Origin: an uncultured Candidatus Saccharibacteria bacterium
GTDB lineage: Bacteria; Patescibacteriota; UBA1384; CAYGGE01
Length of the DNA stretch: 50,256 nucleotides
NCBI GenBank assembly: GCA_964349485.1
Contig: CAYGGE010000006.1
Coordinates: 1 to 50,256 of the forward strand
Direction of reading: 5' to 3'
Made by a program: the position numbers and the translations under genes. Below, piece after piece: positions 12,638 to 39,943 of the stretch. The notes beneath the pieces are model-generated. The model was not told the DNA's origin, did not search any database, and worked only from the letters and a program-made list of their open reading frames with translations. How positions within the stretch are numbered: position 1 is the stretch's first letter; every line of letters starts with the position of its first letter.

Positions 12638-12713
12638 GGGCCGTTAGCTCAGTTGGTAGAGCACTTCCATGGCATGGAAGGGGTCAGGAGTTCGAGTCTC
12701 CTACGGTCCACCA
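12638..12713 (+). tRNA. tRNA-Ala(GGC)
   Basis: Acceptor GGGCCGT/ACGGTCC with the G3:U70 identity pair. Anticodon stem CTTCC/GGAAG with loop ATGGCAT (GGC). T arm AGGAG-TTCGAGT-CTCCT. ACCA. Confidence 0.93.
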
Positions 12714-14235
12714 AATTGCTATTTGACATATTAATATATTCTTCCAACCTGAACGGAAGGCTTATATTGGGTGTTCCAAAACCATTTATAAGTGAGTATT
12801 TCGGATTAGCTGTAAAGATCATATTGTGAACCATATTTTTTAGTTCTATACCTGATCTTGTCCATGTTTCAGCCGGTGTTCCAAGGAATTTTAGTGTTAG
12901 TTGTAGAGCCTCCTCAAAGTTAGGTTCTTTTTTGTATACGACGTTTGTTCGCAAGTCTTTCACTTGTTGGTCTAATTCATCAATCCTTGCCTCGTAGCGG
13001 CCTCGTACGCTCTCTGAGCGAGCCGTAGGCATTAACTTTACATATTCATCGATCTGAGACTCTAGGGACTTAATCTCAGCTTCATTAGAAGCATTACCTA
13101 ATTCCATCTCCTCGACTTTTCGTTGCCATATTCGCATAGCGACGATTTCTGCCATTTCAAGCACCTCCTTCTCGATTTTTATATTTTCAAGTAGCTGAAT
13201 ATAATCTGTTTCAACACGACTAGCAGTAATATTCTTCGGATTAGCAACGCACTCTTTGTTATTGCACGTGTAGTGGGAATAATACTTACGCTTACCTCTG
13301 CTGGTACTTCCAGTTAACTTTCTGTCGCAAAAAGCGCAGTCGACGACTCTTCGTAGTGGGAACTCTCGACTGTCATACTCACGTGGGCCACGGTCAGGCC
13401 GCTTAAGCTTCTTTTGAATCTTCACGAATGTTTCTTCGGAGATAAGGGCAGTATGTTGACCTCTTCTTTTGGAAATATCCCATGCCTTGTATTCGACAAT
13501 GCCAGCATAGAGCGGTTGCATCATAATGCCTTTAACGTAATCGCAATCGATCTTTCTTTTATCGCTGCCGATAAGGTTGTGATAATTTTGAGTAATAAGA
13601 AATTCAATAAAATCTGTTTGGCTTATAATTCTGTCTTCAGCAAAAGCATTGAGTGCCTCTGTCAAAATATCGGTAATATCTGTTATGGGCATTAAGAGCT
13701 TGCCATGTTCGCTATTCTTTCTGTACTCATAACCTGCCGGCGCCTTGAAGCACCAATAGCCTCGTTCGACACGTGCTCGCATCTTCTGGCAAACTTGGCG
13801 TCGGTTTTGTTTTCGCTCTAGCTCATTTTGAGCAGCGAATATTGTTTCAACAAACTCGCCCTCAGCACTATCGTCAAACTGATAGTTAAGGCAGCGCAGT
13901 CGTGCGTCGCGGGCATGTAACTCAGCTCTCAATTTTCGGTGAACGCCTACGTCTCGCGCAAAGCGTTTCAGATCATCAAAGATGACGACATATTTACTTT
14001 CCCAATGGTCGTCTAAGTACTTAAGAAGGGCCGTCATGGCCGGTCGGTCAAAGAGTCCGCCAGAGATACCTTCTTCACGAAAAACTTCCTCAACCTCTAG
14101 ACTTACCGAGGCGGCGTCAAGTCGACAGCGATGTTCTTGGCTGTCGAGTCCGCTCCCTTCCTTAACTTGCTTATCGGAAGAAACGCGGCAATAAATTAGG
14201 GCTCTAGCGTACTCGTTTTCCATCTTCGTACTCAA
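12649..14235 (-). CDS. Large serine recombinase (integrase)
   Basis: Resolvase catalytic block ALIYCRVSSDKQ, a recombinase domain, the zinc ribbon CAFCDRK...YTCNNKEC and a coiled-coil. TTG at 14235, or more likely ATG at 14223. The last 18 codons are antisense to tRNA-Ala. Confidence 0.9.
   Translation of the reverse strand: MSTKMENEYARALIYCRVSSDKQVKEGSGLDSQEHRCRLDAASVSLEVEEVFREEGISGGLFDRPAMTALLKYLDDHWESKYVVIFDDLKRFARDVGVHRKLRAELHARDARLRCLNYQFDDSAEGEFVETIFAAQNELERKQNRRQVCQKMRARVERGYWCFKAPAGYEYRKNSEHGKLLMPITDITDILTEALNAFAEDRIISQTDFIEFLITQNYHNLIGSDKRKIDCDYVKGIMMQPLYAGIVEYKAWDISKRRGQHTALISEETFVKIQKKLKRPDRGPREYDSREFPLRRVVDCAFCDRKLTGSTSRGKRKYYSHYTCNNKECVANPKNITASRVETDYIQLLENIKIEKEVLEMAEIVAMRIWQRKVEEMELGNASNEAEIKSLESQIDEYVKLMPTARSESVRGRYEARIDELDQQVKDLRTNVVYKKEPNFEEALQLTLKFLGTPAETWTRSGIELKNMVHNMIFTANPKYSLINGFGTPNISLPFRLEEYINMSNSNLVDRRRLELLTPSMPWKCSTN
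12705..12812 (+). repeat. Left direct repeat (attL-like), overlaps the last 9 nt of tRNA-Ala
   Basis: Gap-free hand alignment with 39829-39936 gives 94/108 identities. Shared 14-mer GGTCCACCAAATTG. 33-nt perfect core at 12755-12787. Confidence 0.85.
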
Positions 14236-14443
14236 AATCCTTTAGATAGGCACCGATAACTTTATCGACGATGCCAATCATGTTATTTCGTATTTCTAAA
14301 ATGCGTTTGTCGGGTAGTTGAAACTCACCCATGTATTGCTTGCATTCTTCAAGCGAAATTACTTCTTGACTGTTAGACTTTTTCTTAGCCACTGGTGAGC
14401 CTGTATTCTGTTGTCTAACAGGTTGAGACAGATCGAGATTCAT
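14204..14443 (-). CDS. Hypothetical 79-aa protein upstream of and overlapping the recombinase gene
   Basis: Strong RBS (GGAGGGG then ATG on the minus strand). 32-nt overlap with the recombinase ORF. No recognisable motif. Confidence 0.55.
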   Translation of the reverse strand: MNLDLSQPVRQQNTGSPVAKKKSNSQEVISLEECKQYMGEFQLPDKRILEIRNNMIGIVDKVIGAYLKDFEYEDGKRVR

Positions 14444-14474
14444 ACCCCTCCTCGTTATCTATATATCGATAATA

Positions 14475-14490
14475 TATCTGTATACAGATA
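14475..14490. promoter_or_regulatory. Perfect 16-bp palindrome TATCTGTATACAGATA in a divergent intergenic region
   Basis: The sequence equals its own reverse complement. It lies 32 nt upstream of the 79-aa gene start, between that operon and def. Confidence 0.5.
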
Positions 14491-14630
14491 GTTGTCAATA
14501 GGTAGTTTATACATACTTTTTGGCATAGTCGTCACTATCGAGCGTGCTATATATTAAATCTGTAGCAAGCTAACGGCCGTAACAGTAAAAGTCTACAGAT
14601 TATCAGTTCTTTTTTTGGTATAGTGCAGCT

Positions 14631-15251
14631 ATGTATGAAACGCTTACGTTGGCTGATCCAACTAGCCCTACACTTAACCGCGTAGCAAATTTAGTATCAA
14701 TAGATGCTATTAATTCACCAGATATTGAAGATACGATAAGCCAAATGCTTCATATCGCTTATGGACGACAAGGTGACGTAAAGGCTAGAACAATGGTTGG
14801 CCTAGCAGCACCTCAAGTTGGTGTTTCGAAAAGAATTATCGTCGTAGGGGTGAACTCGACCGGATTAGGAGAAATACCCGATCTAAAAGTATTTATAAAT
14901 CCTACGATCATATATAAATCAGAGTTAACTGAAGAGGGACGTGAAGGGTGCTTCTCGACTGGCCACATCTGCGGTGTAGTGAGCCGTTCTGTCTCAATTA
15001 CAGTGCGAGCTTACGATCAGACCGGAAAAGAAATAGAAGTAACTCTTGAAGGCTTTCCGGCACGTGTCATGCAGCATGAGATTGATCATCTTGATGGCAT
15101 TCGCTTCCCAGACCACATTACCGACGGAAATAAACTACACTGGGTTGAGACAGATGAATTTGGTGACTATCGCGATCATTGGCGGACTTGGGGTAAATAT
15201 TGCTCATTCGAGAAATGGAACGCAATGAAGAGCGGTGAAGCAGTCGGATAA
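14631..15251 (+). CDS. def: Peptide deformylase
   Basis: All three motifs are present: GLAAPQVG, EGCFS and QHEIDHLDG. Confidence 0.9.
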   Translation: MYETLTLADPTSPTLNRVANLVSIDAINSPDIEDTISQMLHIAYGRQGDVKARTMVGLAAPQVGVSKRIIVVGVNSTGLGEIPDLKVFINPTIIYKSELTEEGREGCFSTGHICGVVSRSVSITVRAYDQTGKEIEVTLEGFPARVMQHEIDHLDGIRFPDHITDGNKLHWVETDEFGDYRDHWRTWGKYCSFEKWNAMKSGEAVG

Positions 15252-15284
15252 GTATTTTCTGGTATACTTCAAACAAAGGAGATC

Positions 15285-15800
15285 ATGATGAAGGTGATCT
15301 TATACATGGCAACTACTCTCAATGGAATGATCGCGAAGCTCGATGATGATACGAGCTGGATCAGTGGTGCAGAATGGGATCAATACAGTAAGATTGTACG
15401 ATCAGCAGGTCACCTTATCGTTGGACATAGAACATACGATATACTTACTAAGCAGCCAGAGTTCGTTGAGTTTAAGAATGTGAAAGTCGTTGTGGTTGCA
15501 ACAAAAGAGGTGGATCTCGTTGATGATAGCCATAAAATAGCTACTTCTCCTGAAGCAGCACTCAATCTATGCGAAGGCGCTAAAGAAGTGGTTGTCGCTG
15601 GCGGCGGAATTCTTAATGCTGCCTTCTTAGAGAAACGTTTAGTTAATGAAATATATATCGATATTGAGCCTATCATCTTAGGTAGAGGCCTGCCTCTTTT
15701 TAATGGCTCAGACTTTGTTGCCAACCTCAGGTTAATAGACAGCCAGAAGATTGCGGACAATGAAATTCAACTACACTTTGAGGTAGAGAAGGATAAGTAA
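15285..15800 (+). CDS. Dihydrofolate reductase-family protein (RibD C-terminal domain)
   Basis: About 170 aa. The N-terminus KVILYMATTLNGMIA...W and the LIVGHRTYD block are typical of RibD_C/DHFR-like reductases. Confidence 0.75.
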   Translation: MMKVILYMATTLNGMIAKLDDDTSWISGAEWDQYSKIVRSAGHLIVGHRTYDILTKQPEFVEFKNVKVVVVATKEVDLVDDSHKIATSPEAALNLCEGAKEVVVAGGGILNAAFLEKRLVNEIYIDIEPIILGRGLPLFNGSDFVANLRLIDSQKIADNEIQLHFEVEKDK

Positions 15801-17173
15801 TGGATAAAATTGCATCAACAAACCCATCGAAGAGTTATTCTGTAATCGATTCAGTCGAGATTTCAACAAGCGAAGAAATCGCAGAAAAAGTTGCCTTAGC
15901 CCGTAATGCAGCTAAGGCTTGGCAAGAGCTTGGTATAGATGGGCGATCTCAGTTAATACGAAAGCTCATGGAGGCTTTTGGCAATGATGAAGAACAACTA
16001 GCCCAGCTCATGTCTAAGGAAATGGGAATGCCGATTAAAGAGACACGCGAAGATCTGAAATTTGGTTTAGATTATCTTAACTCCTATATCGACCAGGCAC
16101 AGGACTATTTTAAACCAGAGATTACTTACCAGACTGAAAGTGAAGTTCACGAAGTATATCGTGAGCCTTATGGCGTGGCTGCGGTAATCGTACCCTGGAA
16201 TTTTCCATTTACAAACTTTGTATGGCAATGCGGACAAAATTTAATTGCGGGTAATACAATCGTATTTAAGCACTCAGAGGAAACACCTCTCTTTGGCCGT
16301 GAGATCGAGAAACTCACAAATGCTGTATTGCCGAAAGGTGTATTTAATGAGATTTATGGTGACGGTTCGGTCGGAGAATTGCTAGTTAATGAAGATGTGA
16401 ATCTTATCTGTTTCACTGGTAGTACCAAGACGGGACGTAGAATCAACGAATTAGCTGCAAAACGGTTTATTCCAACAATTATGGAACTTGGAGGTTCGGC
16501 ACCTGGAATTATATTTGAAGATACCGATATAGATACGATCAAACAGACTCTTTTTAATGTCAGATTCATTAACTGCGGACAGATGTGTGACGCCCTCAAG
16601 AGGTTAATTGTTCATGAAAGCAAGATAGATGAGGTTGTCGCAAAACTGATCGAGATTATTCAGTTAAAGAAAATTGGCTCAGCTCAAGATGAACATACAG
16701 ATATCGGACCTCTTCTTGCTGAGAGACAACTAATATTGCTAGAGAATCAGGTCGCTGATGCAAAAGAAAAAGGAGCCGAAATAGTAGTCGGCGGGAAGCG
16801 CCCAGGCGGATTAAGTGGAGCATATTACGAACCAACGATACTAACTAGCGTTACGAGTGATATGCGAGTATGGAAAGAGGAAGTTTTCGGCCCAGTATTG
16901 CCGGTAGTTAGTTTTACAACGGAAGAAGAAGCGATCAAGCTTGCGAACGATACTTCGTTTGGACTGGGCGCTTATATCTTTACGCAAGATAAAGAGCGGT
17001 TTATGCGAGTAGCAAAACAGATAGAGTCTGGTATGGTCGCACAGAATAATATTAGCTATATCAATACCAATAATCCCTTTGGTGGCTATAAGTTATCTGG
17101 TAATAGTCGTGAAAATGGAATCATAGGATTTGATGAAGTTACTCAAGTCAAAATTATTGCAAAGGAATGTTAA
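15800..17173 (+). CDS. NAD(P)-dependent aldehyde dehydrogenase
   Basis: VPWNFP, ELGGSAP and the catalytic-Cys block FINCGQMCDA, plus EEVFGPVL. Start overlaps the previous stop by 1 nt. Confidence 0.9.
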   Translation: MDKIASTNPSKSYSVIDSVEISTSEEIAEKVALARNAAKAWQELGIDGRSQLIRKLMEAFGNDEEQLAQLMSKEMGMPIKETREDLKFGLDYLNSYIDQAQDYFKPEITYQTESEVHEVYREPYGVAAVIVPWNFPFTNFVWQCGQNLIAGNTIVFKHSEETPLFGREIEKLTNAVLPKGVFNEIYGDGSVGELLVNEDVNLICFTGSTKTGRRINELAAKRFIPTIMELGGSAPGIIFEDTDIDTIKQTLFNVRFINCGQMCDALKRLIVHESKIDEVVAKLIEIIQLKKIGSAQDEHTDIGPLLAERQLILLENQVADAKEKGAEIVVGGKRPGGLSGAYYEPTILTSVTSDMRVWKEEVFGPVLPVVSFTTEEEAIKLANDTSFGLGAYIFTQDKERFMRVAKQIESGMVAQNNISYINTNNPFGGYKLSGNSRENGIIGFDEVTQVKIIAKEC

Positions 17174-17574
17174 TGGCCGATTGTGTTTTTTGTAAAATCA
17201 GTTCTAAAGATATCGGTGCTCATACCATTTGGGAAGATGATAAATTTATTGCCTTTCTAGATGTTAATCCTGTTAACCCGGGTCATGTTCTTATTATTCC
17301 TAGGGAACATATCTCGTACATATTTGATCTAGAAGAGCCTGGTTATACTGAGATTTTTCAAGTGGCTAAGAAACTTTCCTTACCACTCAAAAATGCCACG
17401 GAGGCAAAGCGTATTGGTTTGGCAATTGAAGGGTTTGGGGTTGATCATCTTCATCTACATTTAGTGCCGGTCAATACCGGTGGCGAGCTAAACCCTGAGA
17501 GAGCTCAGATTGCTGATGATTCGGATCTAGTCCGTATGGCTAATACAATTACAAGTCACATATCCGACTTGTAA
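17167..17574 (+). CDS. HIT-family nucleotide hydrolase/transferase
   Basis: CVFCKI N-terminus and the histidine triad HLHLHLVP. 7-nt overlap with the ALDH gene. Confidence 0.9.
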   Translation: MLMADCVFCKISSKDIGAHTIWEDDKFIAFLDVNPVNPGHVLIIPREHISYIFDLEEPGYTEIFQVAKKLSLPLKNATEAKRIGLAIEGFGVDHLHLHLVPVNTGGELNPERAQIADDSDLVRMANTITSHISDL

Positions 17575-17580
17575 CACTCA

Positions 17581-18207
17581 CTAAGGTTCTCCGTCCAGAA
17601 ATACCCTTGGATTGACCGGGATACCGAACACCCGAATCTCAAAGTGTAAGTGAGGCCCCGTAGACCAGCCTGTGCTGCCTCGTGTACCAATTAACTGACC
17701 AATCTCCACTTCGTCACCAACAGCGACATTCAGGCTATCTAGGTGGGCGTATACCGAACTCGTAAAATGCCCGTGGTCTATTTTGACATGCTTGCCGTAG
17801 CCCCAGGAGACGGAATCGGCATAGGTAACCTTGCCTTTCATAAACGCCACAACTGGATCACCAACAGTACGGGTAAACGTGGCAATATCTATGCCTGTAT
17901 GAAACGGCTGGTATGGTAGGTCTATCTCACCAAACTCTAAACTAATCGGTCCGGAGACTGGCCAGACGCCGAGAGATTCAATATGGTCGACCACTTCGCC
18001 CGTGCGAGGATCCCGAATGTCGACTTGCACAGATTGCGGATCGCGACTAACTAACGCGCCGGATACAATCTCTAGACCAACTTCGGTAATCATAATGACC
18101 GTAAAGACGGGAATAAGACAGATGACTAAAAAAGTAATAAAGACGTATTTAATTTCTTTCTTCATCGAGAAAGCAGTGGCAATAGCGCTAATGGTTTGGG
18201 GTGTCAT
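17581..18207 (-). CDS. Membrane-anchored M23 metallopeptidase (T4SS cell-wall hydrolase candidate)
   Basis: N-terminal TM helix and the M23 motifs HTGIDIA and GPHLHFEI. ATGA overlap with the VirB4 gene. Confidence 0.88.
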   Translation of the reverse strand: MTPQTISAIATAFSMKKEIKYVFITFLVICLIPVFTVIMITEVGLEIVSGALVSRDPQSVQVDIRDPRTGEVVDHIESLGVWPVSGPISLEFGEIDLPYQPFHTGIDIATFTRTVGDPVVAFMKGKVTYADSVSWGYGKHVKIDHGHFTSSVYAHLDSLNVAVGDEVEIGQLIGTRGSTGWSTGPHLHFEIRVFGIPVNPRVFLDGEP

Positions 18208-19994
18208 TTCTTCGGTCGGTAATTCTCAGCCGGATCTGTTGTAATAAGTGGGTGCTCGTCTTCGGAAGCAGTGATTTTGACGACGACGTGGTGTTGATCA
18301 GCCACAATCAAAGCTTCGCCCCGTTCACAGGTTAAGAGAAACTTTTGTTCGTATTCACTGAGCCTGAATTCTTCCGCCACAGTGCGGATTGTAGTTGTGT
18401 CTTGGCGCATCAAAATACGGAGCGCACTTTGGGAAGCGATTGCCCGGCCATACGCATTTTGAAGAAAGTCGTTGGCTTGTTGAGAAATGATACTGACGCC
18501 TAAATAGTACTTACGAGCACGACGAACCAGGCCAGCAATGAACCTTGCGCTTTCTTCGTGCTGGAGCATCAACCAAGCTTCATCAATTACGAGGAGTCGT
18601 TTGCATGGTTCGCTTTTTACTTGATTCTGGACAAACTGCGCCACGACTAAGTGCATGATTTCTCTGAGGGATTCAGGCAGGTCTTTGGTGTCGAAAACAA
18701 CCAGACGATTATCTAGCTGGATATTCGTCTGTTCCTCAAAGACTTCAGCGAGAGAACCGGTCGTATATTTCTCAAGTCGACGACAAAGTTTGTGTTGTTT
18801 TAGAGATTTGAGGGTGGCGTAGAAGTCATAAAGTACCGGATAGTTAGCCGAGTCGCGTTTACGAGATTTCTTAGACGACCAGCCAGCCTTTTTGTAGGTC
18901 TTGAGGATAGCTTGGTCAACGACAGACTTTTCTTCGGCATCCAAGCCTTCTGCCATGAGGGAAATAATTTCCGTTAAGGACTGAACGTGATCGGCGAAGC
19001 TGTCCGGTTCAGTAAAGGCATTGATCGAAAGGTCAAACGGATTAATCTTTTCTTTTGAGTGAACTGAGAGTTTTACATAAGTGCCCTTAACCGACTCCGC
19101 CAGCTGGCGATATTCTCGCTCTGGGTCAATGACTATGACTTTTGTCCCGCGCATGAGGTTACGTAGAATCTCAACCTTCGCGGTATAACTTTTCCCAGCA
19201 CCAGACTGAGCAAAAAGGATGCTGTTGGCATTCGGTAGTGCAAAACGGTCAAGTATCACTAATGAGCTATTGGAGCGGTTCACGCCGTAAAGAATGCCGG
19301 ACTCGTGGACAAGTTCGGACGAAATAAATGGAAAGGTCAGGGCGGTTGAGGAGCTGTCTAAGTTACGCTTTTGAGCAAGTAAGTTATCTCCTCGCGGTAG
19401 AACAGATTGCAAACCTTCAACCTGCTGGAAGGTAGCGCACTTCGTATAGAACAAACGAGTGGCTAAGACGGTTTCAAGGAGTTTGGTTGTCTTTTCTAGC
19501 TCGATTAACGAATTGGCTGAAAGAGTAATGTAAATCGAGACTTGAAACAGGTTTTCTTGGCCACGCTGGATCTTGTCGCGTAGTTCAATCGCTGATTCCA
19601 GTGGATCCATTAATTCAGCCCCAATAATCTTACCGGCTCGTTCCATGGCTCGTTTGGTCGAAGTTAGCTCAGTAATCTTACGATTGAGCTTAGGTAACGC
19701 TAATGTCGCTTCAATCGGTTCGATATGGTACGAAATATCAACGTTGTAGTTGAAGTTAATGAGTTGATTCAACCACCCACTAGAAGCGGTATAGGGATAG
19801 CCAGAAACAAACAGCGTCCGAACGTAGCGGTCATCAATCACCAGATAGTTGCGCTGCTCTTCGAGGCCCGAGTAAGTAATCAGATCAAGCTGATCTTGAT
19901 CGCCGACGTGAAACTCGAGCGTCTGTTTACGCTGCCAACGGTCGTCACGGATCTTATTTAATTTGGTTTTCAATTTAGATATGGGTGAAGGCAT
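18204..19994 (-). CDS. VirB4-family T4SS ATPase (middle and C-terminal ATPase part)
   Basis: Walker A FAQSGAGKSYTAK and Walker B LLVIDEAWLML. The upstream block YVRTLFVSGYP...GWL is typical of Gram-positive VirB4/TcpF/PrgJ proteins. Confidence 0.88.
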   Translation of the reverse strand: MPSPISKLKTKLNKIRDDRWQRKQTLEFHVGDQDQLDLITYSGLEEQRNYLVIDDRYVRTLFVSGYPYTASSGWLNQLINFNYNVDISYHIEPIEATLALPKLNRKITELTSTKRAMERAGKIIGAELMDPLESAIELRDKIQRGQENLFQVSIYITLSANSLIELEKTTKLLETVLATRLFYTKCATFQQVEGLQSVLPRGDNLLAQKRNLDSSSTALTFPFISSELVHESGILYGVNRSNSSLVILDRFALPNANSILFAQSGAGKSYTAKVEILRNLMRGTKVIVIDPEREYRQLAESVKGTYVKLSVHSKEKINPFDLSINAFTEPDSFADHVQSLTEIISLMAEGLDAEEKSVVDQAILKTYKKAGWSSKKSRKRDSANYPVLYDFYATLKSLKQHKLCRRLEKYTTGSLAEVFEEQTNIQLDNRLVVFDTKDLPESLREIMHLVVAQFVQNQVKSEPCKRLLVIDEAWLMLQHEESARFIAGLVRRARKYYLGVSIISQQANDFLQNAYGRAIASQSALRILMRQDTTTIRTVAEEFRLSEYEQKFLLTCERGEALIVADQHHVVVKITASEDEHPLITTDPAENYRPKK

Positions 19995-20619
19995 TGGATT
20001 GTCTCACTAAGGCTTGGGCTAATGGCTGGGTTTTAGCTTGTTGTGGCTGGTAAAAGCTGTAGAAGAGATCAAGAATCTCAAGGCTGGATAGCGGCCGGGC
20101 CGTCATACCAAGCTTCTCCAGTCCCTTGATAATAATCTCCTGTTCAAGCATCAACTGTTCTTTAACCATGGCGAAATCAGTCACGCCGCGATTTTCATAA
20201 GGGATCACGACATAGAACCGGCGGGAGAGAATCTTGTTACCGGCCACGAGCTTGCGGATGAACTCGCTGTAGTTCGCCAGCTGCTTCTTATAGATGGCTT
20301 CGGTCTCATTGGCGCGAGAGGCTTGGAAGTCTTCAAGATAGCGTTCGATATCCAGTTCTCGCACTCGAATCAGGATTTGGAGCGGCGTGGTAATCGAGTT
20401 GAGAAAAGACTGAAACGAGTCCATTAGGGCATCTTGCTCGGCTTCACTCTGGAGCTCAAAGTTTAATGATGAAGTCGTCAGAATCATGCGGTAGCGGTTG
20501 TCGGGAAGAATGAGAATGTTATCTCTGACTTCCTTAATCCCGATTTGCGTTCTGGCGGATCCTTTAGTCTTTGATTGGGACAAGCGAGACATCGATGCCT
20601 CCTTTCTTGGCAAGTTCAA
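19975..20619 (-). CDS. VirB4 N-terminal-domain-like protein (separate ORF)
   Basis: The pattern IKEVRDNILILPDNRYRMILTTSSLNFELQSEAEQDALMDSFQSFLNS matches the N-terminal region of full-length Gram-positive VirB4 proteins. 20-nt overlap with the ATPase ORF in another frame. Confidence 0.6.
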   Translation of the reverse strand: MNLPRKEASMSRLSQSKTKGSARTQIGIKEVRDNILILPDNRYRMILTTSSLNFELQSEAEQDALMDSFQSFLNSITTPLQILIRVRELDIERYLEDFQASRANETEAIYKKQLANYSEFIRKLVAGNKILSRRFYVVIPYENRGVTDFAMVKEQLMLEQEIIIKGLEKLGMTARPLSSLEILDLFYSFYQPQQAKTQPLAQALVRQSNAFTHI

Positions 20620-22335: not shown

Positions 22336-22343
22336 GGATACTC

Positions 22344-24614: not shown

Positions 24615-24616
24615 CC

Positions 24617-32933: not shown

Positions 32934-34443
32934 TACCACTCTTAAGTCATCAATCAATAAGCTCTGGGACAAGTTCTGGAGTGGTGGTATTTCTAACCCA
33001 CTCACAGCTATTGATCAGATTTCCTATTTGCTTTTTATGAAGCGGCTTGATGAGCTCGATACCAAAAAGAGACACGATGCAGCATTCACTGGAGAGACAT
33101 ATGTTTCTCCCTTTGCGGGTGAAAACGAGAGGATGCGTTGGAGTTATTTCCGCCAGCTAGAGGGTGGCGAAATGCTATCGCATATCCAGACTAGAGTCTT
33201 TCCTTTTCTCAAAACCCTTGGGAAAGAAGAAAGTCCCTTCGCCAAGCACATGGGAAACGCAGTATTTATTATCTCTAAGCCGTCACTCTTAGTTGAGGCT
33301 GTAGGTATTATCGATGACATTTTCACCGAGATCGAAAAGCAAGAATCCCATGGACAAGGCTTCCAGGACACTCAAGGTGACCTTTATGAATATTTATTAT
33401 CTGAGATCACGAGTGCTGGTAAGCTGGGGCAATTTCGCACACCTCGTCACATCATCCAGCTTATGTGCGAACTTGTTGACCCAAAGCTTGGTGACACCAT
33501 TTGTGACCCCGCATGCGGTACCGGTGGCTTCCTATTAGGAGCCTATCAACACATCATTACAGCGTATACGAGTAACGAACACCGTATAACCGACGACAAC
33601 GGTTTAACCCGTGGACTCCTAGGCGACAAATTAACTGACGAAAGACAATGGACACAGTTAAAAGAAAAAACGTTCTACGGCTATGACATGGACGAAAGCA
33701 TGGTACGAATCGGCCTAATGAACCTTATGATGCACGGCATTTCGACTCCTAATATCGAGCAAAAAGATACGCTGTCCAAGAAATATGACGACGACAACTA
33801 TTACGATTGTATTCTTGCCAACCCACCTTTCAAAGGAAGCATTGATAAGGGCGACATCAACGAATCACTTTCGCTTCCAACAACGAAAACAGAACTTTTA
33901 TTTTTAAACAGAATCATTAAGTCTCTTAAAATCGGTGGCAGAGCCGGAGTAATCGTTCCTGACGGCGTTCTATTTGGCTCTAGTAATGCCCACAAACAAG
34001 CACGCCAGATGCTTCTCAACGATTGTGAACTTCAAGGGGTGATCTCTTTGCCTAGTGGTGTCTTTAAGCCTTACGCTGGAGTAAGTACCGCTATTCTCAT
34101 CTTTGTAAAAGGCGGTGAAACAGAGAAAGTATGGTTTTACGATATGCAAGCTGATGGCTATACGCTGGATGATAAACGCACTAAAATAAGCTCAACGGAT
34201 CTGCCTGATATTGTAGAGAAGTGGCAAGCCAGAAAAGAGCAAGCCGATAACAATCGAGGGTGTAAATTCTTCTCGGTTGATAAGATAGAAATAGAAGAAG
34301 CAGGGTTTGATTTCAGCATTAAGCGCTATAAAGATATAGAACATGCAAAAGTAGATTACGAAAGCTCAGAACTTGTCTTGCAAAAGATTAATATATTAGA
34401 ACAAGTAATTATTACTGGTTTATCAGATTTAGAAGAAATTTAA
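32926..34443 (+). CDS. hsdM: Type I R-M N6-adenine DNA methyltransferase subunit
   Basis: HsdM N-terminal block LWDKFWSGGISNP, AdoMet motif DPACGTGGFL and catalytic NPPF. 8-nt overlap with hsdR. Confidence 0.93.
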   Translation: MLNTTLKSSINKLWDKFWSGGISNPLTAIDQISYLLFMKRLDELDTKKRHDAAFTGETYVSPFAGENERMRWSYFRQLEGGEMLSHIQTRVFPFLKTLGKEESPFAKHMGNAVFIISKPSLLVEAVGIIDDIFTEIEKQESHGQGFQDTQGDLYEYLLSEITSAGKLGQFRTPRHIIQLMCELVDPKLGDTICDPACGTGGFLLGAYQHIITAYTSNEHRITDDNGLTRGLLGDKLTDERQWTQLKEKTFYGYDMDESMVRIGLMNLMMHGISTPNIEQKDTLSKKYDDDNYYDCILANPPFKGSIDKGDINESLSLPTTKTELLFLNRIIKSLKIGGRAGVIVPDGVLFGSSNAHKQARQMLLNDCELQGVISLPSGVFKPYAGVSTAILIFVKGGETEKVWFYDMQADGYTLDDKRTKISSTDLPDIVEKWQARKEQADNNRGCKFFSVDKIEIEEAGFDFSIKRYKDIEHAKVDYESSELVLQKINILEQVIITGLSDLEEI

Positions 34444-34445
34444 TT

Positions 34446-35585
34446 ATGAATTTAGTTGAGCTAGGAAAAGTAGCAGAATTTATTAATGGCTATGCTTTTA
34501 AGCCTTCCAGTTGGTCTTCAGAGGGTATGAAAATAATTCGAATCCAGAACTTAACAAACCCTAGTAAGTCATATAACAGAACAAAGCAAGTAGTTCAAGA
34601 AAGATATAGGGTTCGGAAGGGTGATATTTTAGTGTCTTGGTCAGCGACTCTTGGGGTTTTTGAGTGGGAAGACCAAGAAGATGCATTGCTAAATCAGCAC
34701 ATATTCAAAGTACAGCTAGATTCAACGGTTGTTGATAAACAATACTTTAAGTACGTACTACGATACTCGATCGAAAAAATGGCTCAATTTACACATGGTT
34801 CAACCATGAAACATATTGTTAGACGTGATTTCTTGAACCACCAAATTCCGCTTCCGTCTCTCGAGGACCAGAAGAATATTGTGAAAGTGATAGAGCTGGC
34901 AGAAAGCTTGCTTACGAAACGCAAGAAATCAATTGCATTACTTGATAATTATTTAAAATCAGTCTTTTTGGATATCTTTGGAGACCCAGTAAAGAATCCT
35001 ATTGGATGGAAGACTGAAAAGCTTGGAAATGTTGCAAGTAAAATAACTGACGGAACACATAAAACTCCCGTATACACTAAGGATGGAGTGAAGTTTATCT
35101 CAGCTAAAAATATTAAAGCGGAAGAAGTCACATGGAAAGATATAAAGTTTATATCACAAGTGGAGCATGATAGTCTTTATCAGAGATGTAACCCTGAACG
35201 CAACGATTTGCTTTTAACGAAAAGTGGCAGCTTAGGAATGGTTGCGTTGGTAGATGTTGATTTTGAATTTAGTCTATTCGAAAGTGTTGCCTTAATAAAA
35301 GTAAACCAAAAACTAATCGACCCCATTTTTCTCCGTGAGTATCTTAATTTAAAAGAAATAAAATCTTTTTACTCACAGAGAACCAAGGGGATAGGTGTTA
35401 AACACTTACATTTAGTAGATATCAAATCGTTACCAGTACTTTTGCCACCAATAACTGACCAGCAGAGGTTCGCACGATTAGTTCAGAAGGTTAAAACGCT
35501 AAAGCAGAAAATGTTTGCTCAGTCGTATGCAATGGAAATTCAGCTCCAGTCTTTAATGCAAAAATCGTTTACTTCGGAATTATAG
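34446..35585 (+). CDS. hsdS: Type I R-M specificity subunit (two TRDs)
   Basis: Two target-recognition halves separated by conserved helices (LPSLEDQKNIVKVIE... and LPPITDQQRFARLVQKV...). 2-nt gap after hsdM. Confidence 0.9.
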   Translation: MNLVELGKVAEFINGYAFKPSSWSSEGMKIIRIQNLTNPSKSYNRTKQVVQERYRVRKGDILVSWSATLGVFEWEDQEDALLNQHIFKVQLDSTVVDKQYFKYVLRYSIEKMAQFTHGSTMKHIVRRDFLNHQIPLPSLEDQKNIVKVIELAESLLTKRKKSIALLDNYLKSVFLDIFGDPVKNPIGWKTEKLGNVASKITDGTHKTPVYTKDGVKFISAKNIKAEEVTWKDIKFISQVEHDSLYQRCNPERNDLLLTKSGSLGMVALVDVDFEFSLFESVALIKVNQKLIDPIFLREYLNLKEIKSFYSQRTKGIGVKHLHLVDIKSLPVLLPPITDQQRFARLVQKVKTLKQKMFAQSYAMEIQLQSLMQKSFTSEL

Positions 35586-35690
35586 ACAACCACACTTCAA
35601 TTCTAATTACTTTTCTTTCACGTTTCATTTCTAGTCTGACCCAAGGGATTAAGTCCAGGCTGTTTCTCGATCTCTGTCGAGCAGAAAAAC

Positions 35691-35924
35691 CTAATTAGAA
35701 AGTGCTTGCTTCATCTCTCTTATTTGGTTCTCTCCAAGTTCGATTATTGCACCGGCACAAATCACACAATAGTTACGCCTTGCTCGCGATGCTGTATCGA
35801 CTACGACCAGACAAGGTTGCCCCATAGTAATACTATGGACGTTTGGCTTATGGTAGCATTTTCGCCGAGCCGATGCCGTTTCTACTAGTACATGTTTTAG
35901 AATGTTCTTAGTTTGTGCCATCAT
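35691..35924 (-). CDS. Small 77-aa Cys/His-containing protein, last gene of the PLD-helicase operon
   Basis: Overlaps the helicase gene's 3' end by 17 nt. Contains C-x-H, C and a CVIC (CxxC) motif, which may form a zinc-binding fold. No family recognised. Confidence 0.5.
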   Translation of the reverse strand: MMAQTKNILKHVLVETASARRKCYHKPNVHSITMGQPCLVVVDTASRARRNYCVICAGAIIELGENQIREMKQALSN

Positions 35925-38001
35925 CGCTCCTTATTGCAAGCTTAATGCGTCTCGCCACTCCATCCCCAACCTGGTCAAGTGATTTATAGGCGAGTTCAAG
36001 CTGCTCAGCAGTCCATTTCTCTCTTGTGTCCAGGTCTTGTCCCACGAGCTCGTTGATTTGATTGTTTAGGAATGAGAATAGAGCATCCGCATTATTACCC
36101 CTTACTCCAGGTACTGCCCTTGAGATATCGTAACCAGCGCGTGATAAGCCAAGGTCTGCGAGAATCCGATTGTGAATGCTTTTCGAGCGTTCGTCGAGTC
36201 GTTTGCGAAGTATCTGACGATGCACCTGAGGCTGTACAGGTGACGGTGTAGCGGGTGCTTCTTTACGGGTATTTCTGGCTGCATGCATCTCTCGAAGTTT
36301 TTCAGGTGTAATACCTAATTCTCTGAGCGTAAAGCCACCTGGGGCCTTAGAATCAAGTAATCTGTCTATCACCGTATCGTCTTCTGGGTCTAGATAGGCT
36401 TGTGATAAGAAATGACTTAATATTTCTTTATCAGCTAGCGGCTGATTGTCGTACCTGTGAGCTTCTTGCTCTCCGTCTTCTTTAGTTCTAGAAGTGCCAC
36501 CACTAGCCCCTGACCCGCGCGCCCAAACCTTAACAAGCTCCTGGTCTTGAGCGTCTAGCTCTCTAAAGTCATCCCAGCGGTCCTCGTTGTTTAATCCAAT
36601 ATGGGATACGATATACGCTTGATTATTAGGATGGTCCGCAGCGTTTGGCTCTACTGTTCTCATGACGCGACCTACAAACTGAATATATGGAGCCAAGGAT
36701 CGGTAGGGCTTAAATATGGCTGCAACGCTTAGCGGTGGGTGATCAAAGCCTTCCCCAAGCATAGCCACTTGAACGATACAATCGAGCTGACCACTTCTCA
36801 GTTTGCTAAAAATTGTCTCCTTACGATCATCTGGCATCTCTCCGTAAATTTCCGCAGCTTGAAGCCCCATTTCCTCATATATCGCTCTGACTTGGCGAGC
36901 GTGGTCAACAGACATCGCTGAAGCGATTATCTGGTGAGGGAAACCGGTATGTGCTCGTAACTCCTGCATCTTTTCTACGCTTTTTTCAGCAATGTGGCGA
37001 TTACACTCTTCCGAAAGGGCTACGCCACGTCGAAACCACGCTTGCTCCTTAAGTGCCAGTACCTCTTCAAGGCTAAAGCTTCTACTTTCGTCTTTAACGC
37101 TGAAACTAATCTCTGTTGGTCGGGCGGACGCAGAAGAAACGTGTTTAATGTATCCATTAATCATTGCTAGTGAGAAAGGGTAATGATAAATAAGAGTACC
37201 AACCAGATCTTGATTGTCTGATCGGAATGGTGTCGCGGTCATGCTTACAAAGCGTGCACCAGGGAAAGCTCTAATTACCCGTTGCCAGCTTTCGGCGGCA
37301 ACATGGTGTCCCTCGTCAATTATTATGAGATCGAAGAAGTCCGATGGAAACTGTGAAAGCCAACGGTCAGCTCTACTCGCCAGCTGTTGAATGTTTGCTA
37401 CTACGATATGGCTCTTTGAGCAGTCGTCAATATTCGCCTTGGGGCCGTCTACGAGTGCAGTGAATGGTCCTTTTGAGAAATCGGTGAGTACGTTAGCTTT
37501 TTTCCAAAAGCAACCAGTATTAGAAATGTTAAGGTCAGCGTAGAGCCCAGTCCGAATAGTTTTATTCGGCGCCACAATAAGTACCCTGCCGTTTGATAAT
37601 CCAAAAGGTAGTATTGCAGCGAGGCCTGTCTTGCCGCACCCAACGGGAAGTTGGATGATAGCAGGCTCGGTTGATTTTTCGAAGTGAGTGACTGCGGCAT
37701 CGAATGCTTCCTGTTGTGGTTCGCGAAGATATGGGTTCTTGTTTATCTTTGGATCTGCTTCCGAAAAATAGCCCGCAATGTTACTGGCGTTCATTCCTGC
37801 GTGTCCAAACTCAAGTCGGAACTGTTCAAGGTCGGCTATCTTGTAGTATCGGTAGTCGCTACCGGGGCGTTTTGTTGCGATTAGTTTACCTGCATCATCC
37901 CAACGTCGAAGAGTGGCCGCTGAGACTCCGACGAACTCAGCTGCTTGAGCAACCGTTAGAAAATCAAGTTCTTTTTCATCTTTCATGAATCTACCATACA
38001 A
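35908..38001 (-). CDS. SF2 (DEAD/DEAH, ResIII-like) helicase with N-terminal MerR/excisionase-type HTH
   Basis: HTH LTVAQAAEFVGVSAATLRRWDDAGKL. Q motif LREPQQEAF. Motif I PVGCGKTG, II IIIDEGHH, III MTATPFR, V LGEGFDHP, VI QFVGRVMR. Start is TTG 38001 or ATG 37986. Confidence 0.88.
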   Translation of the reverse strand: MYGRFMKDEKELDFLTVAQAAEFVGVSAATLRRWDDAGKLIATKRPGSDYRYYKIADLEQFRLEFGHAGMNASNIAGYFSEADPKINKNPYLREPQQEAFDAAVTHFEKSTEPAIIQLPVGCGKTGLAAILPFGLSNGRVLIVAPNKTIRTGLYADLNISNTGCFWKKANVLTDFSKGPFTALVDGPKANIDDCSKSHIVVANIQQLASRADRWLSQFPSDFFDLIIIDEGHHVAAESWQRVIRAFPGARFVSMTATPFRSDNQDLVGTLIYHYPFSLAMINGYIKHVSSASARPTEISFSVKDESRSFSLEEVLALKEQAWFRRGVALSEECNRHIAEKSVEKMQELRAHTGFPHQIIASAMSVDHARQVRAIYEEMGLQAAEIYGEMPDDRKETIFSKLRSGQLDCIVQVAMLGEGFDHPPLSVAAIFKPYRSLAPYIQFVGRVMRTVEPNAADHPNNQAYIVSHIGLNNEDRWDDFRELDAQDQELVKVWARGSGASGGTSRTKEDGEQEAHRYDNQPLADKEILSHFLSQAYLDPEDDTVIDRLLDSKAPGGFTLRELGITPEKLREMHAARNTRKEAPATPSPVQPQVHRQILRKRLDERSKSIHNRILADLGLSRAGYDISRAVPGVRGNNADALFSFLNNQINELVGQDLDTREKWTAEQLELAYKSLDQVGDGVARRIKLAIRSDDGTN

Positions 38002-38094
38002 CGTTTAACAACGTTATGCAACCCAATCTTTTTCAGCCGGTGAGTAGGTTTTTACATTTGTTTTACATAGTTGACGGGTTAAATTGGCTCAAAG

Positions 38095-38754
38095 CTAAAG
38101 AGCGCGGTGTTCTTCTCCAGTTAATTTAGAGACCGTCAGATCTAGGGCTTGGCGAACCGCATCGTGCAACATAGCGTCTTTTATTCGTTCACCACGTTTT
38201 CGCTTGTTGGTATAAAGGATAAGGTCGTCTAGACATTCCTCGAGTGAGCTTTCGAGACCTACCTCGTACCATAGTTTTCTCGTTAAGAATGGGATGACTT
38301 GCTCAAGCTGTTCGTCAGTAAGCGTTACATCATAGTGCGTCTTGAGTAACTCGACGGTCTTCACGGATACTGTAGGTTCGAAAGGCACTGGTCGATGCTC
38401 TACGAGAATACCGCGTATCTCAGCGGCTACTCGTTGTTTTTCTTTCATCGGCACAAGAGCCAGAAGAGATGTTGCATGATTACGAAGGTCTGATCGAGAC
38501 AAGCTCTGACTGCCAGATTGCTCTAATAAATCTCGTAAATCATCGAGCTGCTCTTCTCTGAACTGCCGAGGTGAATCTGATTTTGCGCTAGCTTTTTGCC
38601 ACCATTCAAGCTCTTTAATCAACGTAACTAGCCGTCCTGTTTCAGTATCAGGCATAACAATATCGTACTTATCTTTGATAAGCTTCTTGGTCTGTATAAT
38701 CTCTAATTCAGTAGGCTCAGAAAAATCTGAGTTAAGTAGGGATGAGTTATCCAT
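38095..38754 (-). CDS. Hypothetical acidic 219-aa protein, possible two-repeat architecture
   Basis: 7-nt gap after the PLD gene. No known motif. Residues about 22-52 and 131-161 look related (KLIKDKYDIVMPD...LEWW and ELLKTHYDVTLTD...KLWY). Confidence 0.55.
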   Translation of the reverse strand: MDNSSLLNSDFSEPTELEIIQTKKLIKDKYDIVMPDTETGRLVTLIKELEWWQKASAKSDSPRQFREEQLDDLRDLLEQSGSQSLSRSDLRNHATSLLALVPMKEKQRVAAEIRGILVEHRPVPFEPTVSVKTVELLKTHYDVTLTDEQLEQVIPFLTRKLWYEVGLESSLEECLDDLILYTNKRKRGERIKDAMLHDAVRQALDLTVSKLTGEEHRAL

Positions 38755-38761
38755 AGCACTC

Positions 38762-39436
38762 CTAGTGAGGCGTGTTTGCTGTCAGTATTTCTACCCACTG
38801 CATAACAACTTTCAAAGGTATAATATCCAATAAAGCGATAAATAGCCACCATATCACCATTACAGATAACCAGCACAGTACAATTGTACGTAGGATACTT
38901 CGTCGCCTGGGTCGCGCAGTCCTGCTAAAAGCTCGGCCGACTTGGTTGTGTTTCGCACTTAATCCTTCCGCTAGCATGTCGCTAAGCCGAAGGTGACGAA
39001 TAACTTCCACAGTCGAATCCTTATCGGTTATACGGCGCATCATCTCTCGGCTGGACCGTTGCGAAAGGATGTTCAAACTCCCTTCCCAAAGTATTTCCCG
39101 GTCGATAATGGCTACTTTTTCATGAATATAACCGCTAAGGTAATAAATGGTTGCGCCCGTTTCTTCATACTGACCAAGGATGTCCGTGATTTCGCTACGT
39201 TGACCCGGAGCATACTCACGAAGTGGGCGGGTAAAGATAAAGACGTTGATATTGGTGTCTTTAAGTTTGTGCATTAGGCGAAGAAACGTATCAGCGCGGT
39301 GTTTAGAGACAAACGGGCTATAAATAATAATCTCTTCTTTTGCCTTTAACATGTCATTGGCTAGGGCGGAATAGAAAGAAGTTTGATTATAGAGTTTACT
39401 CGTGACGGTATTTTTCTTGTGATTATTAGCTAACAT
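38762..39436 (-). CDS. PLD-superfamily (single HKD) nuclease-like protein with C-terminal TM helix
   Basis: HKD motif HEKVAIIDREILWEGSLN (HxK-x4-D-x6-GSxN). C-terminal hydrophobic segment ILRTIVLCWLSVMVIWWLFIALL. Confidence 0.85.
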   Translation of the reverse strand: MLANNHKKNTVTSKLYNQTSFYSALANDMLKAKEEIIIYSPFVSKHRADTFLRLMHKLKDTNINVFIFTRPLREYAPGQRSEITDILGQYEETGATIYYLSGYIHEKVAIIDREILWEGSLNILSQRSSREMMRRITDKDSTVEVIRHLRLSDMLAEGLSAKHNQVGRAFSRTARPRRRSILRTIVLCWLSVMVIWWLFIALLDIIPLKVVMQWVEILTANTPH

Positions 39437-39489
39437 ATTGCTCCTTAGACCATTTTACCTTAATTGATCTGTAATTCTGAGTAGCGAGT

Positions 39490-39498
39490 TGGTATAAT
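39490..39498 (+). promoter_or_regulatory. Extended -10 promoter (TGgTATAAT) for the XRE gene, predicting a leaderless mRNA
   Basis: TATAAT at 39493-39498 with TG at 39490-39491. The ATG lies at 39507, only 8 nt downstream, and no Shine-Dalgarno is possible. Confidence 0.5.
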
Positions 39499-39506
39499 GT
39501 CGGTAT

Positions 39507-39722
39507 ATGGATAATGAAAAAGACCAAAAAGCTCGCAATAAACTTGGCGCAATACTTAAAGAGGCTCGCTTGAAAGCGGGTCTTACTCAAGCTGAAGTTG
39601 CCGCCAAGGCTAAAGTAAACGCAAATTATTATGCGATTGTTGAACGTGGAGAAGGAACCTACTCCTTCGCTAATTTGCAACGAATAATGAAGGTACTTCA
39701 TATTAAGTCCTTAGACTTATAA
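39507..39722 (+). CDS. XRE-family HTH transcriptional regulator (71 aa)
   Basis: HTH_3 pattern LGAILKEARLKAGLTQAEVAAKAKVNANYYAIVERGE. Divergent from the PLD-helicase operon. Confidence 0.85.
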   Translation: MDNEKDQKARNKLGAILKEARLKAGLTQAEVAAKAKVNANYYAIVERGEGTYSFANLQRIMKVLHIKSLDL

Positions 39723-39943
39723 GAATCAGGGCGCGCTTCGTCGTCCTGTTGTTCTTTATAGATTTTCTCTAATTTAGGCTTCCACTCAATTACGTACTCG
39801 AGAAAGGTGTTCCAAAAAATACCGCTAGGGTCCACCAAATTGTTTTTTAACTTGTTGATATATTCCTCCAACCTGAAAGGAAGGCTTATATTGGGTGTTC
39901 CAAAACCATTTTTAAGCGAGTATTTTGGGTTTTCTGACACCAC
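39698..39943 (-). pseudogene. Recombinase 3'-end fragment, or an alternative recombinase C-terminal segment
   Basis: Encodes NPKYSLKNGFGTPNISLPFRLEEYINKLKNNLVD, homologous to the recombinase C-terminal region. There is no homology upstream of codon 5. The frame continues for 43 more codons into the island. Confidence 0.6.
39829..39936 (+). repeat. Right direct repeat (attR-like)
   Basis: 94/108 identical to 12705-12812 at a constant offset of 27124. Contains the tRNA-Ala 3' terminal 9-mer GGTCCACCA. Confidence 0.85.

Follow-up and report, generated by a model that had tools for sequence, protein, structure and literature searches.

The stretch analysed here, hereafter the window, comprises 50,256 nt of contig CAYGGE010000006.1 from an uncultured Candidatus Saccharibacteria bacterium. 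It holds a 27.1-kb island (12705-39828) that starts within the 3' end of a tRNA-Ala gene and is bracketed by a long imperfect direct repeat, with plus-strand housekeeping genes on both sides (PGI on the left; NusA, ClpC, RelA/SpoT and HisRS on the right). A reading made from the letters alone (the first-pass annotation) had taken the island for an integrative and conjugative element (ICE) and the whole repeat for its attachment-site (att) duplication. We argue below that the island is probably a single ICE, inserted at the 3' end of tRNA-Ala(GGC) by the large serine recombinase (LSR) that it encodes, with attP inside the integrase gene, and that the long repeat consists of a short core plus a fossil. 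The features of the two ends are listed first.

12638-12713, plus strand: tRNA-Ala(GGC), intact, the putative integration target (attB, B arm) (ARAGORN, Rfam)
12705-12718: putative attL core GGTCCACCAAATTG, in which the final 9 nt of the tRNA are followed by 5 nt more; one of two perfect copies in the window, matching the 7-13-nt core of the family
12649-14223, minus strand: large serine recombinase in its integrated form, 524 amino acids (aa) (Pfam Resolvase, Recombinase, Zn_ribbon_recom)
12705-12812, minus strand: left repeat copy, integrase residues 472-506 (alignment, codon comparison)
14204-14443, minus strand: 79-aa open reading frame (ORF) that shares 20 nt with the start of the integrase gene, a conserved partner across the family
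39701-39829, minus strand: putative native C-terminus of the integrase, a displaced 43-aa tail beginning PSGIFWNTFLEYVIEWKPKLEKIY, the P arm of attP (tail hidden Markov model, alignment to the homologue P0011)
39829-39842: putative attR core GGTCCACCAAATTG (alignment, exact-word count)
39843-39936, minus strand: putative fossil, about 31 codons from the 3' end of another integrase gene related to the first, cut off near 39937 (alignment, codon comparison)

Residues 1-506 of the integrase are homologous to its family, and the final 18 aa, RRRLELLTPSMPWKCSTN, are an antisense reading of tRNA-Ala. Read on the minus strand, the left repeat copy encodes ANPKYSLINGFGTPNISLPFRLEEYINMSNSNLVD (residues 472-506), and the attL core corresponds to the integrase codons N-L-V-D. 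The right copy encodes ENPKYSLKNGFGTPNISLPFRLEEYINKLKNNLVD and then runs leftward into the island as PSGIFWNTFLEYVIEWKPKLEKIYKEQQDDEARPDSYKSKDLI, up to a stop codon; it is a 35-codon piece of a second, diverged integrase, fused in frame with the native 43-aa tail of the first. Rejoining the two ends yields an integrase of 549 aa.

Homologues of the rejoined protein number in the hundreds at 40-70% identity, mostly on Patescibacteria or metagenome contigs. All of them keep the sequence GFGTPxLSLPF...LV[DE] and then diverge into two classes. In the majority class, LV[DE] is followed by antisense peptides of tRNA or tmRNA T-arms, such as DPTGFEPATSSVQTRRSTN or EVAGVAPASKR, while in the second class (at least 14 of 120 among the matches listed) the protein ends in a tail of the form xxxxWNxFxxxxxxWxPxL, the same as the peptide at the right end of the window. 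A hidden Markov model (HMM) built from the tails of the second class matches window 39701-39829 with E = 2.8e-13. The rejoined C-terminus aligns to the uninterrupted homologue P0011 without a gap across the junction and to the very end (51% identity, E = 5e-37). At the P0011 locus (L011; homologous loci are given here as L numbers), the small ORF, the integrase gene (int), a convergent HTH_3 gene and a PLDc_2 gene form one contiguous block, which is the order obtained by joining the left end of the window to its right end.

Because the tail motif, the P0011 alignment and the L011 gene order all match the rejoined ends, we place attP inside the integrase gene, in its 3' portion, where N-L-V-D is encoded. 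The complement of these codons, GTCCACCAA, is also the terminal sequence of the tRNA, and integration would therefore leave the tRNA intact. As judged from the two ends, it would swap the native 43-aa tail for 18 tRNA-antisense residues, with the tail segment stranded 27 kb away. The predicted attP junction (39828 joined to 12705) is ...ACCGCTAG/GGTCCACCAAATTGCTATTTGAC..., and the predicted attB with the fossil is tRNA-Ala...CTAC/GGTCCACCAAATTGTTTTTTAAC.... The first-pass annotation had the positions of the island ends right; attP within int and the tail split off by integration had escaped it.

The word GGTGTTCCAA occurs around the att sites at 12770-12781, 12873-12884, 39806-39817 and 39894-39905, where its copies encode LGTP, GFGTP and WNTF on the minus strand. 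Across 69 homologues, codon fixation is extreme at the core alone (V505, GTG in 66/68) and moderate at F491 (TTC in 42/43), T484 and P450. The pattern hints at a possible DNA-level constraint beyond the core at the GGTGTTCCAA words, but the signal is confounded by the relatedness of the homologues, and the idea was set aside.

By its domains, its motif and the model of a homologue, the integrase belongs to the large serine recombinases. The Pfam domain Resolvase scores above its cut-off, with Recombinase (19.8 vs 21.1 bits) and Zn_ribbon_recom (21.3 vs 25.3 bits) just under theirs, and the catalytic motif YCRVSSxxQ is conserved along with the invariant Arg and Asp residues. NCBIfam gives a sub-threshold likeness to XisF, CcrB and CcrC, the sequence matches in the PDB are TP901-1 and A118 integrase domains, and characterised phage LSRs found by tblastn, such as TP901-1, show only 25-29% identity. 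The AF2 model of P0011 (mean pLDDT 88.7) has the complete layout of an LSR: a coiled coil spans 352-429 and a helical C-terminal subdomain 436-498, a linker of low confidence coincides exactly with the core codons, and the tail is a confident helix at 510-537; the native tail is thus predicted, from this homologue, to form one helix. The top Foldseek matches of the model are full-length serine integrase-att complexes (E = 4e-18). No member of the family was found in PLSDB plasmids at E <= 1e-20. A tRNA island of the tyrosine-integrase (Islander) type was also considered and rejected: the island contains no Phage_integrase domain, and the displaced piece of tRNA is only 9 nt.

The 79-aa ORF has counterparts throughout the family. 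In loci L011-L095, an ORF of 50-90 aa lies just upstream of int, often overlapping its start, and carries the motif ..EC+xYLxxYxLSDxxIxxIRNxLxGIVDxxIxSYL; the ORF has no match in Pfam or NCBIfam. It is the sole visible candidate for an accessory or directionality factor.

The repeat itself is exactly as the first-pass annotation had described it. Realignment of 12705-12812 with 39829-39936 gives 94/108 identities without gaps at a constant offset of 27124, the longest perfect run being 33 nt (12755-12787 = 39879-39911), and the tRNA-Ala(ggc) gene called by ARAGORN and Rfam at 12638-12713 on the plus strand supplies the last 9 nt of the tRNA with which the repeat opens. At the same offset, identity beyond the repeat is random on both sides (28/105 on the left, 39/138 on the right). 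In a repeat search of the whole window the terminal pair ranked top (112 nt, 87%), with all other repeat families at 36 nt or less, and the 14-mer GGTCCACCAAATTG has exactly two copies in the window, at 12705 and 39829.

The composition of the repeat points to two different origins. The 14 differences between the copies fall at codon positions 1, 2 and 3 in the numbers 0, 5 and 9; seven codons are changed synonymously, and the non-synonymous changes are grouped in a linker that is variable in the family (MSNS vs KLKN). Such a distribution over codon positions is what two integrase alleles would show after diverging in a functional state, and hence we read the right copy as a fossil. Furthermore, a short core is the norm in the family (see below), so the long repeat of the window was not made by the recombination mechanism. 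The true att core would be the 14-nt GGTCCACCAAATTG, and the other 94 nt of the right copy the leftover of an earlier or tandem occupant.

The intact version of this arrangement can be seen in a tandem array in L011 (about 1601 and 10001-11617). There, a chromosomal flank is followed by a core and tail at about 1601 and by a 9.9-kb element that ends in an integrase gene, beyond which lie the tail, HTH_3 and PLDc_2 genes of the next element, not a tRNA; the integrase is completed by the tail of its neighbour. The 9.9-kb element carries a sortase and a 1306-aa Big-domain protein. In the window, tRNA-Ala may first have been occupied by a related element, and the present ICE may then have inserted between the tRNA and the resident, by analogy with L011 and with the arrays at Dehalococcoides ssrA, either site-specifically at the junction of the tRNA and the P' arm or by homologous recombination in the shared 3' region of the integrase genes. 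The older resident would later have been deleted down to its last 94 nt or so.

How far this integration logic extends was surveyed with a metagenome scan based on the integrase alignment, which returned 80 loci and confirmed 464 relatives among the first 600 candidates. Targets were counted in the 74 loci with a complete integrase 3' end, drawn from those 80 and L011-L015. In at least 49 of the 74 the integrase stop codon is overlapped by an antisense tRNA (37) or tmRNA (12) gene (tDNA), distributed as follows.

tRNA-Ala: 17 loci
tmRNA: 12 loci
tRNA-Thr: 9 loci
tRNA-Leu: 3 loci
tRNA-Ile: 2 loci
tRNA-Arg: 2 loci
tRNA-Glu, tRNA-Val, tRNA-Lys and tRNA-Tyr: 1 locus each

A further family member, outside this count, sits on tRNA-Pro (L100). 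Hosts of the family range from CPR (candidate phyla radiation; Patescibacteria) to at least one named alphaproteobacterium. A 77-aa C-terminal query had retrieved only 75 representatives, many of them fragments; such a short single-sequence query is too insensitive to gauge the size of the family.

Both element ends are visible in 17 loci, representing 15 distinct elements, where a tail fragment of the same orientation lies upstream of the integrase at a distance of 3.9-9.0 kb. In these 15, attL and attR have in common only a core of 7-13 nt around (T)TGGTGGA[CG], i.e. short att sites with minimal attL/attR identity, as for LSRs. Over the 82-130 nt compared beyond the core, identity is 22-30% (20-39 matches each), vs 93/130 in the window. 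The small elements (4.9-9 kb; L025, L028, L031, L080, L085) carry defence-like cargo, namely OLD/AAA_15 nuclease, DUF4238, HATPase_c_3, NYN and a trypsin-like protease, and no transfer genes were found among the genes scanned in these five. For the contigs L013-L015, which hold uninterrupted integrase genes, contig ends that coincide across assemblies suggest repeats rather than circles.

Possible scars of tRNA-targeting elements were seen at two other places. In the Candidatus Berkelbacteria contig L001 (2456-2664), tRNA-Ala is followed by a terminator hairpin and a second copy of GGTCCACCA lies 125 nt downstream, which may be an att scar. In the window itself, positions 127-158, comprising the last 21 nt of tRNA-Val(tac) and 11 nt more, are repeated 121 nt on at 248-279 (32 nt, 1 mismatch); this partial repeat looks like an att scar or the remnant of another tRNA-targeting element.

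Gene identities within the island were assigned using Pfam, NCBIfam and PADLOC and are listed below from the tRNA-proximal end, starting after the 79-aa ORF.

14631-17574, plus strand: cargo genes for peptide deformylase (def), a RibD_C/DHFR-like protein, aldehyde dehydrogenase and a HIT protein (Pfam)
17581-22685, minus strand: six-gene type IV secretion system (T4SS) operon with overlapping or abutting ORFs (Pfam, NCBIfam), consisting of the next six genes
17581-18207, minus strand: M23 hydrolase
18204-19994, minus strand: VirB4
19975-20619, minus strand: TrsD/VirB4-N-like protein
20564-21070, minus strand: PrgI (VirB3-like)
21067-22335, minus strand: VirB6-like protein
22344-22685, minus strand: VirB2/TrbC pilin
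22824-23582, minus strand: helix-turn-helix (HTH) regulator of the TrmB/MarR type (Pfam)
24752-27394, plus strand: VirD4-type coupling protein (T4CP), 880 aa (Pfam TrwB_AAD_bind and TraG-D_C; NCBIfam TraD-like and CD1115-like)
27491-28273, plus strand: Replic_Relax protein (PF13814), candidate relaxase of the MOBC class (Pfam, 49.9 bits against a cut-off of 25.3)
29581-29949, minus strand: DUF3768 protein, a backbone gene beside the relaxase that is kept in relatives (Pfam, relatives)
30126-35585, plus strand: type I restriction-modification genes hsdR, hsdM and hsdS (Pfam, PADLOC)
35908-38001, minus strand: MerR-HTH/SF2 helicase, 697 aa (Pfam/PADLOC)
within 35908-39436, minus strand: 219-aa protein without an assigned family
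38762-39436, minus strand: PLDc_2 nuclease-like protein (Pfam/PADLOC)
39507-39722, plus strand: 71-aa XRE/HTH_3 regulator, whose gene converges on the integrase tail and overlaps it (gene calls on L002 and L004; L011 homologue in the same place; PADLOC control-protein-like)

These searches bear out the serine recombinase, T4SS operon, coupling protein, Replic_Relax protein, restriction-modification genes and flanking pgi, nusA and clpC genes named in the first-pass annotation, in which the label DUF218 for a 209-aa protein at 40190-40819 finds no support, the protein having no Pfam or NCBIfam match. PF13814 constitutes the MobC class in CONJscan (PMC5357655). The sequence of the island therefore holds what an ICE is expected to hold: a recombinase with att sites, a T4SS containing VirB4, a coupling protein and a candidate relaxase. 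The backbone genes are all equal in length to their homologues. At the right end, a 91-aa ORF at 39426-39701 on the minus strand is probably spurious, the gene callers and homology favouring the 71-aa HTH_3 gene on the plus strand. The PLDc_2 gene also adjoins the uninterrupted integrase gene in L011.

The order of the T4SS operon is the same in L019, L020, L023, L096, L098 and L101-L103. The closest relatives by integrase (L019, L020, L023) read VirB2, VirB6, PrgI, TrsD, VirB4, M23, small ORF and int up to the tDNA, and L018 and L022 read DUF3768, relaxase and T4CP, then further on small ORF and int up to the tDNA. The T4CP, Replic_Relax and DUF3768 block recurs as in the window in six other elements covering the region (L018, L022, L096, L098/L099, L101 and L103). 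By comparison, the cargo from def to HIT is specific to the window copy, being missing between int and M23 in L019, L020, L023, L100, L101 and L102. In L101, which comes from another sample, VirB4 is 94.6% and the integrase 82% identical to the window with a different cargo; beyond the core it reads LVE... vs LVD... in the window, and the contig ends there with no tRNA called. For the VirB4 of the window, upwards of 120 database clusters match at 78-96% identity; those with a name are few and are Saccharimonadales or Patescibacteria. Several of these clusters equal integrase homologues in longest-contig size, a hint, short of proof, that both lie on the same contigs.

Direct evidence of recent integration events comes from a sibling ICE in the same samples as the window strain. 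L102 (1-9518) and L103 (5049-14566) are 99.7% identical over 9518 nt, have unrelated flanks and adjoin different targets, tRNA-Arg(tct) in one case and tRNA-Arg(gcg) in the other. Identity to the window is mostly 83-91% for their T4SS proteins (PrgI 61%) and only 24% for their serine integrase, which nevertheless likewise runs antisense into the tRNA. The T4SS backbone was in this way found at tRNA-Ala, tmRNA, tRNA-Pro and two tRNA-Arg genes. Together with the gene content, these siblings at other tRNA genes uphold the ICE reading of the first-pass annotation. Directly upstream of the VirB2 pilin gene, both contigs also carry a pair resembling a diversity-generating retroelement (bAvd and reverse transcriptase; L102 664-2075, L103 5712-7123), and L101 (12408-13325) and the beginning of L096 hold further reverse transcriptase genes.

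The first-pass annotation had also proposed a comparison with close relatives. In the nearest relative available, a Candidatus Berkelbacteria metagenome-assembled genome (L001, PGI 81% identical at the aa level), synteny is lost exactly at the 3' end of tRNA-Ala and the island genes are absent within 10 kb; the block is therefore missing there. No true empty site was obtained: L001 was the only relative returned by a PGI scan of genome contigs, and the right side of its tRNA-Ala differs from the right flank of the window. Searches for exact copies of the proteins on either flank yielded no strain but this one, always with the island, and the Logan contigs stop at the 33-nt core and within the tRNA. 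Two of these same-strain contigs stop inside tRNA-Ala at window 12682-12684, about 21 nt ahead of the att core; a variant branching there in the samples concerned is one possible reason.

Several other explanations of the terminal structure were weighed. An assembly chimera joined at the repeated 33-mer could account for the break of Logan contigs at 39882, within that perfect core, and an artefact of this kind was among the refutations that the first-pass annotation had named. It is exceedingly unlikely, since independent contigs from other samples cross both junctions and thereby rule out an artefact: attL is spanned by L008 and L009 and attR by L002 and L004, four independent megahit contigs from three other samples that are 99.9-100% identical to the window. 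The view of the first-pass annotation that integration made all 108 bp as an att duplication, as in tyrosine-integrase tRNA islands, has in its favour that the repeat opens with the tRNA 3' end and that its copies coincide exactly with the island ends, and that the Dehalococcoides ssrA islands combine a 20-bp repeat with a serine recombinase (PMC3146451). We nonetheless hold it to be very unlikely and abandon it, given that only 9 nt of the repeat are tRNA and the remainder is integrase coding sequence, that 15 other complete elements share only their 7-13-nt core, that the copies differ by codon position as functional alleles do, and that a Pfam scan of the island gave no tyrosine recombinase. 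Slightly less probable still is that the ends belong to two elements, a short integrase element on the left and a 5'-truncated one on the right, with chromosomal genes between them and no single ICE. The right-end ORF (fossil plus tail) does read as the continuous 3' piece of an uninterrupted integrase, a tandem array is known in L011, and the block includes housekeeping-like genes. Set against this, the whole window has one tail and two cores, so that the left integrase would lack an attR of its own; the T4SS operon lies directly inward of the integrase in L019, L020, L023 and L100-L103; the relaxase, T4CP and DUF3768 block continues the same backbone; and the def-to-HIT block is simply missing at that place in relatives, as fits cargo.

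A fixed and immobile block, in which the T4SS is host-interaction machinery typical of Patescibacteria, beside relics of an integrase and of att sites, is unlikely, if less so than the readings above. It draws on the near-universal T4SS of Patescibacteria, reported in 2417/3035 assemblies, mostly without a relaxase, and cited there as essential for epibiotic growth in a cultivated Saccharimonadia strain (PMC12102498). It is at odds with an integrase ORF intact to residue 506 and a displaced tail whose frame is still open and conserves its motif, with the linkage of a T4CP and a MOBC relaxase, which every relative examined shares, with a backbone found at several tRNA and tmRNA targets, including one pair 99.7% identical at two sites, and with the absence of the block from the nearest relative. 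It should be noted that some observations do weigh against an intact, mobile ICE. Neither an empty site nor a circular junction was found in the collections searched, where every contig of the strain carries the island, and the exact attP and empty-site strings were not found in a viral contig collection. The island holds housekeeping-like genes (def, DHFR-like, aldehyde dehydrogenase, HIT and uridine-kinase-like), and the T4SS of the window could serve host interaction also or instead. Serine integrases normally recombine attP with attB only, and insertion beside a resident element implies a hypothetical attP x attL-like or homologous recombination. In addition, the att core is set by attL/attR identity rather than by a mapped crossover dinucleotide, and the role of the C-terminal swap is one that we infer only.

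If the island is indeed one ICE, as we favour, its life cycle can be outlined. Excision would be carried out by the truncated integrase, the sole form encoded when integrated, possibly aided by the 79-aa ORF. The MOBC-type relaxase would nick the element, and the VirD4-type coupling protein and the T4SS, which resembles the FATA type of mating-pair formation (MPF) systems, would export it. Full-length integrase would be produced only from the circular form, such that the C-terminal swap may act as a built-in integration/excision switch that sets the direction of the reaction. The function of the swap, the accretion route and conjugative transfer are all steps that we infer.

A wider reading is possible but, on balance, doubtful: a large and so far unrecognised clade of serine integrases would act on tRNA and tmRNA ends (Ala, Thr, Leu, Ile, Arg, Glu, Lys, Val, Tyr, Pro and tmRNA) through two isoforms that set direction, full-length from the circle and tail-swapped from the chromosome, and a large subclade of the 'core, non-conjugative' T4SSs of Patescibacteria would be truly conjugative on such ICEs. 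If true, these ICEs would mediate real conjugation among ultra-small bacteria.

Taken together, the window offers a nucleotide-resolved and apparently intact ICE in a Patescibacteria genome, as well as a recurring backbone of T4SS, T4CP and MOBC relaxase at different tRNA genes, with near-identical copies at two sites in one community. This bears on the question of whether the widespread T4SSs of Patescibacteria are conjugative or host-interaction machinery only. The survey also documents a broad serine-integrase family that uses tRNA and tmRNA 3' ends, contrary to the summary in the Islander paper, by which tRNA genes are not known as targets of serine-family integrases (PMC4383910). A self-splitting integrase gene suggests a simple genetic control of directionality, and for engineering, serine integrases that act on short, near-universal tRNA ends could become broad-host landing-pad tools.

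Among known systems, the closest precedent, likened by description, is DsiB of the Dehalococcoides ssrA islands. DsiB is likewise a serine recombinase of about 540 aa at the tDNA-proximal end, with its 3' end over attL and with islands in tandem. Its gene always overlaps attL, with the stop codon in the tmRNA gene or a neighbouring island, tandem arrays are the rule at ssrA, and the authors considered that the gene is perhaps complete only on the circle or beside an adjacent island (PMC3146451). The ssrA-repeat primer of that paper starts TGGTGGA, a word in the window core; none of its primers matched the fetched family loci. The targets differ, being tRNA-Ala with a 14-nt core at its extreme 3' end in the window and ssrA with a 20-bp repeat from the tmRNA T-loop for DsiB, although 12 other loci of the integrase family do sit on tmRNA genes. 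The island lacks the DsiA small recombinase, RecF-like, ParB and Mom/embedded tRNA-like genes of the DsiB module and has instead the conserved 50-90-aa upstream ORF; among the genes scanned in the five small family elements, none of these partners was found either. The ssrA islands are moreover read as mobilizable only, whereas the window element is of the self-transmissible type, with T4SS, T4CP and relaxase. The DsiB precedent has had little follow-up, no further paper in the literature searched naming it, although reports later than 2014 may describe serine integrases at tDNAs.

An attP within the integrase gene, with a new 3' end upon insertion into a tRNA gene, is also known from the myxophage Mx8 IntP/IntX, where integration alters the 3' end and the activity (PMC6070905), and attP lies inside the int coding sequence of SSV-type integrases (PMC4383910). 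These are tyrosine recombinases of another fold and mechanism, and belong to phages or archaeal viruses, not to conjugative elements. The set of VirD4 coupling protein, MobC/PF13814 relaxase and serine integrase is shared with the streptococcal IME_Class_8 of integrative and mobilizable elements (IMEs) (PMC5357655), and PrgI, TrsD, VirB4 and a cell-wall hydrolase of the MPF-FATA type with serine-integrase ICEs and IMEs of Firmicutes; the host of the window element, by contrast, is a Patescibacteria (CPR) genome. The chromosomal T4SSs of Patescibacteria are similar in VirB4, TrsD, VirB3/PrgI, VirB6 and VirB2-like pilins and are related to MPF-FATA. A T4SS is found in about 80% of Patescibacteria assemblies and relaxases in only 103 genomes, MOBC being the commonest and often near t4cp (Quinonero-Coronel et al. 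2025, PMC12102498). The same study holds these T4SSs to be chromosomal and mostly co-opted for non-conjugative roles, and describes no ICE, integrase, att or tRNA linkage, which fits the remark in the first-pass annotation that ICEs are barely characterised in CPR. Unlike the T4SSs described there, that of the window lies in an att-bounded element with T4CP and relaxase and has sibling copies at different tRNA genes. On its sequence, the window element is best described as a serine-integrase ICE with a DsiB-like integration logic, in a lineage without previously delimited ICEs.

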